Source of the DNA: Candidatus Thorarchaeota archaeon
Lineage (GTDB): Archaea > Asgardarchaeota > Thorarchaeia > Thorarchaeales > Thorarchaeaceae
Assembly (NCBI GenBank): GCA_011364905.1
Contig: RDNZ01000044.1
Span: forward strand, 1-22,740
DNA length: 22,740 nt
Direction of reading: 5' to 3'
Position 1 is the first letter of the stretch. Each line of letters opens with the position of its first letter. Position numbers and translations under genes: made by a program. Positions 1 through 9,944 of the stretch are shown piece after piece. The notes under the pieces were generated by a model that saw nothing but the letters and a program-made list of their open reading frames with translations, was not told the origin of the DNA and did no database searches.

Positions 1-502
1 GGTTGTCTCCATCCTGGTCATCATAGTAGTCCGAGATCCCGTCTGAGTCACTGTCAACATCGTTGGGATCGGTCTTTGTGGTCCGTACCTCTTGGATGTT
101 GGTCAGACCGTCCCCATCATTATCATCCTGTGCATCATTTATCCCATCATCATCACTATCAGTATCAGTGGGTAGAGTCAGGGTGATGTTATTCTCCTCA
201 TAGTCTGTGAGTGAATCTCCGTCAGTGTCGGCTTGATTCGGATCGGTACCGAGATAGATCTCCTGCCAGTCAGTCAGCTTGTCCCCGTCAGAGTCCTTGG
301 AGTTCGGGTCTGTGCCGTAGGTGATGACCTCTGCAAAGTCAGATAGATTATCTCCATCTGTGTCCGACTTCAAGGGATTAGTGTCATAGGTCAGCACTTC
401 TTCTCCATCGTTTAACTTGTCTCCGTCAGTATCAGGATTATTGTAGAGCGTGCCCTCCATGATGATCTCCCGTGCATCCGCCAGACCATCCTTGTCAAGG
501 TC
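1..502 (-). repeat. Protein-level tandem Ca-binding repeats D-[TS]-D-G-D-x-L-x-D-x-x-E-x(3-5)-T-[DN]-P (~9 units visible)
   Basis: DLDKDGLADARE / DTDGDKLNDGEE..TNP / DTDGDNLSDFAE..TDP / DSDGDKLTDWQE..TDP / DTDGDSLTDYEE / DSDDDGINDAQD / DNDGDGLTNIQE..TDP / DSDSDGISDYYD / DQDGDN. Confidence 0.85.
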
Positions 503-1705
503 TCGCCCATAGGTCGATACCCCGCCTATGTTGGTGCCATAGGCATACTCCTGACCACCGAAGTTGTCGAGGTCTCCCACGCTCAGTGCTCCAGTGAATC
601 CGTTAGCAGTGATCTGCTTAACCCGCCATCCGGTGGAGTTGTACGTGGTGAGCGTGTTGGGTGTCCCCACAAGCACCTGCGAGTTGGTCAGATTCCCGAT
701 GTTTGCGAACCTGATGTCGTTAGGTTGTCCTCCCATGGTCTTGTTCCAGGACAACACACCGTCAGACGTGTATACTCTGAGTTGGTTTGATGCAGTCCCA
801 AGGGCAAACTCGTGCCCTCCATCGGTTACGAGGTCTCCAATCCTGAGAGCTGAGATACTGCTACCGAGTTCAAGTTTCAACGCTGGGCTCCCCGTGCTAT
901 TCCACGCGTTGAGGGTCCCATTGGTGTTGCCGTAGAGCACGTCCCAGTCTTTAGTAGTCGTGAGGTTTCCCATGGCCACAACAGTGATGGCGGTGCCACT
1001 TGTCTTCTCAAACACAATCGAACCATCGTCCTGCAAGAGGGTGAACCGCTTACCCTGAGAGGCCACGACTAGTTCTGTTTGAGGGTCGGTATCGATGTTG
1101 GCACCAGCAATCAGTCTCACCTTGCCATTACTCAGATAACTCCAGAGTTGCGTGGTGTTGGTATCAAAAGCATAGACGTAGAAGTCGTCACAGCCCACAA
1201 CGACCTCCTCGAACGCATCGCCATCGAAGTTTCCACCTGCAACAGCATAGACCGGCTCTGGCAGAGACATGTTCATCTGTACCGTCTTGTCAGCACCAAT
1301 CACAAGCACGCCATAGTCTGTGCCTATGAGTATCTCCTGACCATCGGCAGCTGTGCCATCAAATGATGCCAGTGCGTGTGGTGTCGAGCCTAGGTTGAGT
1401 CTCCACAGCAGGGTGCTGTTATCATCAAGCAAGAACAGGGTACCATTCTGCGTAATGACAGCCACCTCGTCTCGCGAGTCCGCATCAAAGTTGTCGACAA
1501 CAAGGTCCACAACCTGGTTCCCCACACTAGTGGACCAGACGATGGCCGTGTCGAACGGTGCGATCTCTGCGAGAGCATGTGGAACCTGTTGAACCTGTGG
1601 GTTCGTGATTGTCACGGGGTGTACACCCGTGTTAGACGTCTGAACCTGCATTCCTGCAACTGCACAGACGACCAATAGGGCTATGATCACATGATAGGTC
1701 TTCAA
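1..1705 (-). CDS. Secreted FG-GAP-like beta-propeller protein with Ca-binding (TSP3-like, DxDxDxL) repeats; 3' end runs off the window
   Basis: Not in the ORF track; translated by hand. The TTG start at 1705 overlaps the upstream TGA (TTGA) and follows GGAGG. The frame is open to position 1: MKTYHVIIALLVVCAVAG (signal peptide), then ~8 blades (DNFDADSRDEVAV, GNFDGDAFEEVVV, ANIDTDPQTELVV, GDLVTDGGHEFAL, GDLDNFGGQEYAY...), then Asp-rich repeats. Confidence 0.9.
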   Translation of the reverse strand, partial: MKTYHVIIALLVVCAVAGMQVQTSNTGVHPVTITNPQVQQVPHALAEIAPFDTAIVWSTSVGNQVVDLVVDNFDADSRDEVAVITQNGTLFLLDDNSTLLWRLNLGSTPHALASFDGTAADGQEILIGTDYGVLVIGADKTVQMNMSLPEPVYAVAGGNFDGDAFEEVVVGCDDFYVYAFDTNTTQLWSYLSNGKVRLIAGANIDTDPQTELVVASQGKRFTLLQDDGSIVFEKTSGTAITVVAMGNLTTTKDWDVLYGNTNGTLNAWNSTGSPALKLELGSSISALRIGDLVTDGGHEFALGTASNQLRVYTSDGVLSWNKTMGGQPNDIRFANIGNLTNSQVLVGTPNTLTTYNSTGWRVKQITANGFTGALSVGDLDNFGGQEYAYGTNIGGVSTYGRDLDKDGLADAREIIMEGTLYNNPDTDGDKLNDGEEVLTYDTNPLKSDTDGDNLSDFAEVITYGTDPNSKDSDGDKLTDWQEIYLGTDPNQADTDGDSLTDYEENNITLTLPTDTDSDDDGINDAQDDNDGDGLTNIQEVRTTKTDPNDVDSDSDGISDYYDDQDGDN

Positions 1706-8765: not shown

Positions 8766-9944
8766 CTAACCCAGAGTTGGTTTCCTAGAGAATATGAAGG
8801 TGGCTGCGAGAATGGCTGCAGCCGAGAAGGCAAACAAAGTGAGTATTCTATCCCAAACTTCCAGAAGTGAAAGACCTTTGAATGCTGTGTCAATTAGGAG
8901 ATTCAGTCCTTGATTCATGGGTAGAATTCTGTCCAATACTCCGACATTTATGAAGAAACCTGAGAGAATCAAAGTGGCAAACAAGACAAAGAGGAACATC
9001 TGATTTGCTTGTAACCTTGTGCCTGCGACAGATGAAATCAAAATTCCTGTTGCTGATCCTGTGAGTGAGCTCAGGCTCATAATAATCACAAGAGAAAAGA
9101 AGCTTGTGTTTAGACTCAGGTTAAATGCTAGTACCCACAGTGTGACTAGTAAGAGTGACTGGAAGAACCCAATTATCACATATCCTATCACCTTAGCAAG
9201 GACAACTTCCAGTCGATTGGTCGGAGTTAGTAGCATTCTCCGAAGAGGAATATCGCCGACGATTGATTGTGCAGATGTCATCGCAATTCCGAGATAGCTC
9301 GAGAAAATGACGATGAATCCACCAAAGATGCTCTCGAGATAGCCGCCTTGCGGCGTGAACTCAATAACGACTCCTGGAAAAATCTCTGATCTAATCCACA
9401 GCTTTGACGCTCTGAACATGATTGTACCGGCTTGCACAATCCCTTGAACCGTTGCTGAATTAAAGAAGTCATTTCCATCATAATGGACCTCAACATAGGT
9501 TGGCACGTTTTCAGTGAGATTGTACTCAAAGCCATCAGGGATTACCATATACGCATCAATCTGTTGTTCATATAGTGCCCTATATGCCTCGTCTGTAGTG
9601 TTGAACATTGTGACGTTAGCCAGATTTTCGAAAAACGCGGTAAAGTTCTCTGAGAGGTCATCTTGGCCACCATGTATTGAGTCCAAGTCTACTATGCCCA
9701 TTCGTAAAGAGTCCTCAGTGATAGTGGCGTTACCTATGTCACTGCCTCCACCATCGCCTGTGCCACCACCAATGCTCATTCCGCCCATGCTACTGCTATT
9801 AGTGACATACCAAATCATACCGATGAGGGCAGCAGGAAGCAGGAAGATCAAGACGAGAGCAACCTTGTCCTTTATTATCAGTCGAAGTTCCTTCATCACC
9901 ATGTTTCTGATGCGTCTTGATGGTTTAGTCAGAACTTCTGCCAT
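8766..9944 (-). CDS. ABC-2 type transporter permease
   Basis: N-terminal KELRLIIKDK followed by TM1, a large extracellular domain (GIVDLD...AYMVIPDGF), RRMLLTP...VVLAKVIGY, further TMs and LSGFF...ILP. Confidence 0.92.
   Translation of the reverse strand: MAEVLTKPSRRIRNMVMKELRLIIKDKVALVLIFLLPAALIGMIWYVTNSSSMGGMSIGGGTGDGGGSDIGNATITEDSLRMGIVDLDSIHGGQDDLSENFTAFFENLANVTMFNTTDEAYRALYEQQIDAYMVIPDGFEYNLTENVPTYVEVHYDGNDFFNSATVQGIVQAGTIMFRASKLWIRSEIFPGVVIEFTPQGGYLESIFGGFIVIFSSYLGIAMTSAQSIVGDIPLRRMLLTPTNRLEVVLAKVIGYVIIGFFQSLLLVTLWVLAFNLSLNTSFFSLVIIMSLSSLTGSATGILISSVAGTRLQANQMFLFVLFATLILSGFFINVGVLDRILPMNQGLNLLIDTAFKGLSLLEVWDRILTLFAFSAAAILAATFIFSRKPTLG

Follow-up and report, generated by a model that had tools for sequence, protein, structure and literature searches.

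What does a run of five tightly packed genes at the very end of an Asgard archaeal contig encode, and does the large protease-like membrane protein in its middle work together with the transporter genes around it? We studied this question on a 22,740-nucleotide stretch of Candidatus Thorarchaeota DNA (GenBank assembly GCA_011364905.1, contig RDNZ01000044.1, positions 1 to 22,740), called the window below, which comes from contig C42 of an 81%-complete metagenome-assembled genome (MAG) and opens on the contig's first base. A sequence-only reading had proposed an export or surface-assembly system made of an ATP-binding cassette (ABC) permease of the ABC-2 type, two different ATPases (nucleotide-binding domain proteins NBD1 and NBD2), a membrane pseudoprotease with an S8 (subtilase) and a GIFT domain (S8GIFT), and a beta-propeller/Ca-repeat surface protein. 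We found that the permease, NBD1, S8GIFT and NBD2 are a conserved gene set that stays linked across Asgard families. We put the probability at about 60% that S8GIFT is a non-catalytic outer accessory subunit, GldG-like by analogy, of an ABCA-like ABC-2 (type V) transporter energised by an NBD1/NBD2 heterodimer. The locus is composed as follows.

8766..9944, minus strand: ABC-2 permease, 392 aa (PF12698 ABC2_membrane_3, E 2e-31, 109.8 bits against a cut-off of 31.6)
7074..8765, minus strand: NBD1, the long ABC ATPase, 563 aa (ABC_tran, E 6e-28)
2702..7084, minus strand: S8GIFT, membrane pseudoprotease and candidate accessory subunit, 1460 aa (probable start ATG 7069)
1702..2724, minus strand: NBD2, the short ABC ATPase, 340 aa (ABC_tran, E 9e-26; probable start GTG 2700)
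2..1705, minus strand: propeller protein, first 568 aa of a giant surface protein with a signal peptide, an FG-GAP/BBS-type beta-propeller and the start of TSP3 Ca-binding repeats, cut by the contig end
9945..10149, no strand assigned: divergent intergenic region upstream of the permease gene, 205 bp, presumed promoter

These five minus-strand open reading frames (ORFs) occupy positions 1-9944 in the order permease, NBD1, S8GIFT, NBD2, propeller protein, and a Pfam scan supported each of the domains that had been named for them. Reading the junctions directly, we identified only gaps of at most 4 nt or short overlaps, in agreement with the tight, co-directional packing that had been claimed. 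The permease stop codon TAG directly abuts the GTG/ATG of NBD1. The NBD1 stop TGA is followed by 4 nt and then by ATG 7069 of S8GIFT, or overlaps it by 11 nt if S8GIFT starts at TTG 7084. The S8GIFT stop TGA is separated by 1 nt from GTG 2700 of NBD2, which is preceded by GGAGGTG; a start at GTG 2724 would give an overlap of 23 nt. NBD2 and the propeller gene share TTGA, with GGAGGA upstream. The sole sizeable gap in the unit is the 205-bp region ahead of the permease gene, where the promoter presumably lies. As had been suspected, the operon extends past position 1: the propeller ORF is open at the contig end and, since the window begins at contig base 1, the operon runs off the assembly. The remaining part of the propeller gene was not found on other contigs of the same MAG.

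The sequence-only reading was to be given up if the genes did not co-occur in related genomes. We compared neighbourhoods from 11 Asgard families (labelled f1, f2 and so on) and found that, in about ten families, the permease, both ATPases and S8GIFT have remained linked through at least four different gene orders. In f1 (six genera), f2 and f12 the order is perm>NBD1>S8GIFT>NBD2, as in the window. In f21 and f27, NBD2<perm<NBD1< is divergent from S8GIFT>, and in f22 and f24 the arrangement is NBD1< | perm>S8GIFT> | <NBD2. In f26 and f9 the genes NBD2, permA, permB, NBD1 and S8GIFT follow one another, with two permease paralogues. The arrangement is not due to chance, since every genus sampled in the family has it and other Asgard families show it in rearranged form.

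Among 41 relatives, S8GIFT itself was present at full length in nearly all genomes of the genus, and was 33-41% identical in other families. Its non-protease part (residues 481-1460) is rare: a search among 1.84 billion sequences gave 66 cluster representatives at E<=1e-3, whose named members belong to Thorarchaeota, Promethearchaeota, Ranarchaeia and Hodarchaeales. We then surveyed 400 genomes of the phylum twice, with this non-protease part and with a profile of the NBD1 N-terminal domain; the counts refer to related genomes and not to independent samples. S8GIFT and the NBD1 N-domain were found in 78/85 and 80/85 genomes of f1, respectively, in 17/19 and 17/19 of f12, and in all genomes of f7 (5/5 and 5/5), f21 (6/6 and 6/6) and f22 (3/3 and 3/3). 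In f9 both occurred in the same four genomes of 135. Neither was detected by either survey in f5 (31 genomes), f18 (22), f14 (12), f20 (12) and other families. Taken together, linkage that persists through rearrangements, along with common gains and losses, is strong evidence for a functional unit.

We further examined what kind of protein S8GIFT is. Its S8 domain is joined to a series of beta domains and is held by hydrophobic helices at both the N- and the C-terminal end, as judged by hydropathy. The parts below were delimited by Pfam, by hydropathy and on an AlphaFold2 (AF2) model of residues 470-1345 (model mbb35bd870cbb, pLDDT 83.3), with domain limits of the eukaryotic site-1 protease (S1P) taken from PMC11231238.

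5747..6577, minus strand: subtilase (S8) domain, catalytically dead (PF00082, 117.6 bits against a cut-off of 21.8)
4508..5629, minus strand: beta-supersandwich (GH15/GH94/GH116 N-terminal type) and Ig-like sandwich (model residues 17-390)
4118..4498, minus strand: beta-sandwich equivalent to the S1P P-like subdomain (structural alignment to S1P 9csd_A)
3362..3952, minus strand: GIFT domain (IFT52 5fms_A, Z 22.4, root-mean-square deviation (rmsd) 2.2 Å over 193 residues, 20% identity)
3053..3358, minus strand: membrane-proximal beta-sandwich, together with the GIFT domain collinear to OST48/Wbp1
2705..3019, minus strand: C-terminal transmembrane (TM) helix (residues 1356-1382), basic stop-transfer sequence and helical cytoplasmic tail of ~78 aa (hydropathy, sequence)

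The S8 fold was confirmed by a match to Tk-SP (PDB 3afg, E 4.6e-40). Tk-SP and subtilisins were the best solved matches of this domain by sequence, and subtilisins also dominated a PDB search with the whole S8GIFT alignment. Alignment to pro-Tk-SP (3afg) showed that the nucleophile Ser is replaced by Ala410 (codon 5855-5857) and the oxyanion Asn by Asp in the window protein, while the catalytic Asp and His are retained; S8GIFT therefore does not hold the Asp-His-Ser triad with an oxyanion Asn. The profile alignment also reaches into the Tk-SP pro-region. We compared the catalytic columns among 6 and then 53 homologues. The nucleophile column holds A, T, S or G and varies even between close relatives, and the oxyanion position is Asp in almost all members. 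The catalytic His is frequently replaced by R, S, P, T or I, and the catalytic Asp has become S, G or A in several lineages; a few relatives combine Ser or Thr at the nucleophile column with Asp and His. The proposed pseudoprotease status thus holds well beyond the window protein. Because the catalytic columns have decayed across the 53 homologues, S8GIFT is, to judge from these residues, an old pseudoprotease family and not a recent mutant. We also observed a second large S8-domain protein of 1574 aa (L021:2836-7560, plus strand) ~3 kb from the f12 unit and on the opposite strand.

In the AF2 model, the S8 domain is followed by a beta-supersandwich, an Ig-like domain, a P-like sandwich, a Gly-rich linker, the GIFT domain and a membrane-proximal sandwich. 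The supersandwich matched glucodextranase 1ug9 (Z 22.1), glucoamylase 1lf6 (Z 20.9) and cellobiose phosphorylases (Z about 18). S1P residues 482-873 (9csd_A) aligned to model residues 408-772, covering the P-like and GIFT domains, with Z 19.2 over 305 residues. OST48 residues 45-412 (8b6l_N) aligned to model residues 514-876 with Z 18.7 and an rmsd of 13.8 Å, and this high rmsd means that the folds agree while the domain orientation differs. When a profile of the GIFT region was run against all PDB sequences, it retrieved IFT52 (4.6e-15), S1P (6e-8) and Wbp1 (2e-3) and nothing else. The Pfam model IFT52_GIFT (PF23355) scored 34.7-40.4 bits against a cut-off of 27.2, with 34.7 bits for the window protein. 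Among 25 S8GIFT relatives, IFT52_GIFT matched 24/25, ABC_transp_aux (PF09822, the GldG-type family) 22/25 with a best E of 5e-12, DUF4350 19/25 and MBTPS1_4th 9/25. Fold, profile and Pfam score together show that the GIFT domain named by the sequence-only reading is genuine. Moreover, the ectodomain carries 2.0 N-glycosylation sequons per 100 aa, compared with 0.8 expected, and the consensus of the cytoplasmic tail is conserved in the alignment of relatives.

The ABC part of the unit showed an affinity to the ABCA class. The permease, which also matches PF01061 (53.6 bits), is predicted by hydropathy to consist of TM1, a ~150-aa extracellular domain with 5 N-glycosylation sequons, and 5-6 more TM helices; a search for a solved relative by sequence gave no significant match. 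The nearest solved relatives of NBD2 are the nucleotide-binding domains of ABCA3, ABCA4, ABCA1 and ABCA7, with E values of 2e-52 to 1e-44 for ABCA3/4/1. Walker A, Q-loop, LSGG(Q), the Walker B D-E and the H-loop are intact in both NBD1 and NBD2 in every family, so neither ATPase is degenerate. A heterodimer of two active ATPases is plausible, because the two always occur together, each with its motifs intact.

NBD1 differs from a simple ATPase by the following extension.

8031..8765, minus strand: N-terminal cytoplasmic extension of NBD1, two tandem TrmB C-terminal-type beta-barrels (Regulator_TrmB, E 2e-7)

This extension of 245 aa was modelled by AF2 as two beta-barrels (pLDDT 81.8) and scored 30.9 bits with PF11495 (cut-off 22.2). 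The first barrel superposed on the C-terminal barrel of the TrmB sugar domain (3qph_A, Z 15.1, rmsd 1.6 Å over 92 residues; 2f5t_X, Z 14.5), and the next hit was far lower (Z 7.2). In a sequence search of the PDB, the match of the N-domain profile to TrmB was not significant (E 0.7), so the link to TrmB is drawn from Pfam and fold. Neither the winged-helix DNA-binding domain nor the N-terminal sugar-binding subdomain of TrmB was found in NBD1, which holds the barrel only, twice. The N-domain is conserved in f1, f2, f12, f21, f9, f26 and f27. In a paralogous unit of f22/f24 (L039:7902-9764, L031:17437-19317, L040), the extension of the long ATPase consists instead of tandem winged-helix repeats that match the PCI, UFL1 (E3_UFM1_ligase) and DDRGK families, without TrmB barrels. 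This replacement argues for an exchangeable module at this position, either a sensor or an adaptor. The short ATPase of the paralogous unit is 406-418 aa long, with an additional C-terminal part.

The sequence-only reading had also called for a check of co-transcription. In one mangrove metatranscriptome, short near-identical contigs of low depth lie on the permease, NBD1, S8GIFT and NBD2 genes, and one contig (2621-2774) crosses the S8GIFT/NBD2 junction. The contigs do not cover 1-1680, which is uninformative. We regard them as weak evidence. A single low-depth RNA-library contig joins 6282 and 6983 on opposite strands and is probably an assembly artefact.

How might the four proteins work together? 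We propose that they would form a physical complex, a four-protein membrane machine whose core, a type V (ABC-2, ABCA-like) transporter, would consist of the permease, here presumably as a homodimer; f9 and f26 are two Asgard families in which a pair of paralogous permeases is encoded. NBD1 and NBD2, both catalytically competent by motif, would drive the transporter, most likely as a heterodimer, and the TrmB-type barrels of NBD1 could gate this motor from the cytoplasm, either by sensing a ligand or as an adaptor. S8GIFT, held in the membrane by its N- and C-terminal helices, would be placed at the outer face, as GldG accompanies GldA/GldF, and its ectodomain might either take up the extruded material or be set in motion by the ATPase cycle. 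Contact with the ATPases is probably made by the conserved cytoplasmic tail of S8GIFT. The operon of Thorarchaeia additionally includes a giant Ca-binding propeller/TSP3 stalk protein and, in most cases, a TPR protein. By analogy, the exported substrate would most likely be a lipid or a lipid-anchored glycan, given the ABCA affinity of NBD2 and the permease, the glycan-associated folds found in S8GIFT, and the presence of a TrmB-type domain on NBD1.

Several observations weigh against the accessory-subunit reading. In f7, S8GIFT stands alone and an NBD1>perm>NBD2 operon lies elsewhere in the genome, and in f22 second S8GIFT copies occur away from the ABC genes. The two surveys disagree in f24 and f26 (2 versus 11 of 14 genomes in f26); in f26 this is a sensitivity effect, because a divergent S8GIFT beside NBD1 fell under the E-value threshold. 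The window S8GIFT scores below the PF09822 cut-off (26-29 versus 34.7 bits). With the GldA model TIGR03522, NBD2 reached 140.9 bits and NBD1 100.7, far from the equivalog cut-off of 402.6, and no match to the GldF and GldG NCBIfam models was found at E<=0.01. The RNA contigs may stem from DNA in the library. The analogy with GldG explains little mechanistically, and the substrate class is argued from analogy only. The idea of a GldG-like accessory of an ABC-2 transporter, put forward by the sequence-only reading, nevertheless remains the best one in view of the linkage, the genuine GIFT domain and the PF09822 matches of the relatives, while any identity with the Gld equivalogs falls away.

The main rival, which we consider possible but unlikely, is a mechanotransducer, in which ATP hydrolysis reshapes the S8GIFT ectodomain (and the stalk protein in Thorarchaeia) and nothing is moved across the membrane. 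The partner is indeed a dead enzyme with two TM helices and a conserved cytoplasmic tail; S8GIFT and the propeller protein carry their own Sec-type signals and so need no ABC export; and the long ATPase always comes with a cytoplasmic sensor or adaptor domain, TrmB barrels in one type and tandem winged helices in the other. The permease, however, belongs to the ABC-2/ABCA exporter class and not to the MacB/FtsX class, and the f7 genomes show that the ABC core is separable from S8GIFT. That same exporter class also bears on an improbable uptake or sensing role, in which S8GIFT would be a receptor that captures a peptide or glycan within the inactive protease cleft or the sugar-type domains and passes the ligand or a signal to the ABC unit, with TrmB-like sugar feedback through NBD1: the known ABC-2/type V systems are exporters. 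A fold of the substrate-binding-protein type was not found, and an uncleavable propeptide, as suggested by the pro-region alignment to pro-Tk-SP, would probably occupy the cleft. Pseudoproteases often retain ligand binding, the ectodomain contains glycosidase-type and GIFT folds, and the TrmB-type barrel of NBD1 would fit such a role.

The unlinked S8GIFT of f7 and the solo copies in f22 would be expected if the genes were neighbours without a common function. S8GIFT would then be a surface or S-layer-associated protein in its own right, encoded next to an ordinary ABC-2 exporter. This explanation is disfavoured: linkage has outlasted at least four rearrangements, the co-distribution extends over about 30 families, including the same 4/135 genomes of f9, and f7 has both parts in every genome sampled. 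That S8GIFT is an active S1P-like processing protease, which might for example cut the giant propeller protein, is highly improbable. Its domain order is that of site-1 protease, and a few relatives have a Ser or Thr nucleophile plus Asp and His, but the Ala nucleophile of the window protein, the A/T/S/G column, the oxyanion Asp and the loss of His or Asp in several lineages all speak against catalysis. Altogether, these considerations leave a non-catalytic accessory subunit of the transporter as our preferred reading of S8GIFT.

The fifth gene has a narrower distribution. Orthologues of the propeller protein are 2196-2273 aa long, contain 31-51 TSP3-type Ca motifs and a C-terminal TM helix, and end in a conserved beta-rich cytoplasmic domain of ~115 aa without a Pfam match (for example L014:16299-16733). 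Of the families compared, f1 and f2 alone have the protein, which makes it a lineage-specific addition and not part of the core. The sequence-only reading had taken it for cargo or a further subunit. Its sequence features, namely a signal peptide of its own, a TM helix near the C-terminus and a conserved domain on the cytoplasmic side, mark it as a membrane-anchored partner and not ABC cargo. A TPR protein gene usually comes after the propeller gene; the other downstream genes are not conserved. In one genome of the genus, a beta-helix/NosD-like gene (L014:16821-18089, plus strand) follows the propeller gene and is not conserved elsewhere; an identity with NosDFY was rejected, as this gene was seen in one genome and is not part of the unit. 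A ciliary interpretation, invited by Pfam hits to BBS2, BBS7 and PTHB1 in the propeller and by the likeness of the GIFT domain to IFT52, was also set aside, since these hits are generic FG-GAP-type matches that stand beside PQQ, carrageenase and ITFG2. A database representative, P0159 (2099 aa), combines FG-GAP/PQQ propeller, GIFT, CARDB and MG2 domains in a single chain, a propeller-GIFT fusion that recalls the Thorarchaeota operon, where propeller and GIFT are encoded by separate genes.

Other genes were observed around the unit. A 785-aa protein without Pfam or NCBIfam match is encoded at 10150-12507 on the plus strand of the window, and its gene lies next to the operon, in divergent orientation, in all f1 genera sampled and not outside f1. 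In f7/f21 (L022:8423-13026, with equivalents in L023, L026, L027 and L028), three further genes are convergent to S8GIFT, even with the ABC genes elsewhere; they encode a 275-aa TPR protein, a longin-like protein of 131 aa and an MIT-domain protein of 1045 aa. A Ras-family small GTPase gene directly follows the unit in the same direction in f12 and f26 (L021:9648-10172, minus strand; L024; L042); such genes are many in Asgard genomes, and the adjacency may be chance.

A literature search retrieved no paper describing this Asgard operon and none joining Asgard archaea with the GIFT domain or IFT52, and the system appears to be undescribed in the literature searched. It is a distinctive and widely conserved archaeal version of GIFT/ABC-2 systems, with two ATPases that are active by motif, a ligand-sensor-like domain on one of them and a dead protease head on the partner. 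To our knowledge, GIFT-domain ABC-2 auxiliary proteins, GldG among them, were recognised about twenty years ago, and no mechanism has been established for them; the unit offers a tractable entry to the function of the GIFT module. S8GIFT is the sole prokaryotic family found with the S8, P-like, GIFT and TM layout of the eukaryotic site-1 protease, and it sits in the closest archaeal relatives of eukaryotes. As such it may link a surface machine of archaea to eukaryotic proteins of the endoplasmic reticulum and Golgi. A more far-reaching proposal, which we regard as doubtful, is that the unit exports a lipid or glycolipid as a split ABCA-like system, that its S8-GIFT partner acts on a lipid-linked glycan at the cell exterior, and that this gene family was the archaeal stock of eukaryotic GIFT-module membrane proteins, namely site-1 protease and possibly the OST48-type module. 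If this were true, the S8 and GIFT fusion of S1P would go back to an Asgard transporter accessory.

Among the known systems, the closest in overall plan are GldA/GldF/GldG and the generic ABC_transp_aux systems, in which the gene of a large extracytoplasmic GIFT protein goes together with those of an ABC-2 ATPase and permease. We found this coupling of ABC-2 genes and GIFT in f1, f2, f12, f21, f22, f24, f26, f27 and f9. GldG is, we presume, anchored in the membrane at both ends, as is S8GIFT. Unlike Gld, the Asgard unit has two different ATPases, the long one with a TrmB-type N-domain, and a permease of the ABC2_membrane_3 type. Unlike GldG, S8GIFT joins its GIFT domain to a dead subtilase, a glycosidase-type supersandwich and Ig-like domains in one chain, ends in a conserved cytoplasmic tail, and is archaeal. 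We know of no type IX secretion system (T9SS) in Archaea. Because the GldA, GldF and GldG equivalogs are not reached, the Asgard unit is, on model scores, an analogue and not a Gld system.

In coupling an ABC unit to an extracytoplasmic partner that is not itself transported, the unit also resembles FtsEX-EnvC and NosDFY. EnvC is a dead enzyme driven by FtsEX, NosY is an ABC-2 permease, and NosFY drives NosD. FtsX is of the MacB type, unlike the Asgard permease, and NosD is a beta-helix protein, unlike S8GIFT; no homology of the S8GIFT unit to the EnvC or NosD partners was found. With the ABCA (type V) lipid exporters the unit shares an ABC2_membrane_3 permease with an extracellular domain between TM1 and TM2, the affinity of NBD2, two non-identical nucleotide-binding domains and, in f9 and f26, two non-identical permeases. 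An ABC-2 family permease and nucleotide-binding domain motifs that appear competent were both identified, as in a type V transporter. Unlike in ABCA, the subunits are encoded on separate genes, the extracellular domain is much smaller, and a giant accessory protein is added.

The remaining likenesses concern S8GIFT and eukaryotic proteins. Its GIFT domain, beta-sandwich, TM helix and tail are collinear with those of OST48/Wbp1, and the GIFT fold is shared with the N-terminal domain of IFT52; OST48/Wbp1 and IFT52, unlike S8GIFT, have neither a protease domain nor a link to an ABC transporter. Reported Asgard homologues of WBP1 are said to be restricted to Heimdallarchaeia (PMC10307638), whereas the S8GIFT family is commonest in Thorarchaeota and is a different set. 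S1P is the only proprotein convertase with a GIFT subdomain, which packs on the loops carrying the oxyanion residue (PMC11231238). S1P is an active, autoprocessing protease with SPRING as cofactor; in S8GIFT, the replaced nucleophile and oxyanion residue make such an activity improbable on sequence grounds. S8GIFT also differs from S1P by two extra beta domains between the S8 and P-like domains and by its place in an ABC operon. The order of pro-region, S8, P-like domain, GIFT domain, TM helix and tail is nevertheless that of site-1 protease (MBTPS1/S1P/SKI-1; PDB 8UW8, 9CSD).

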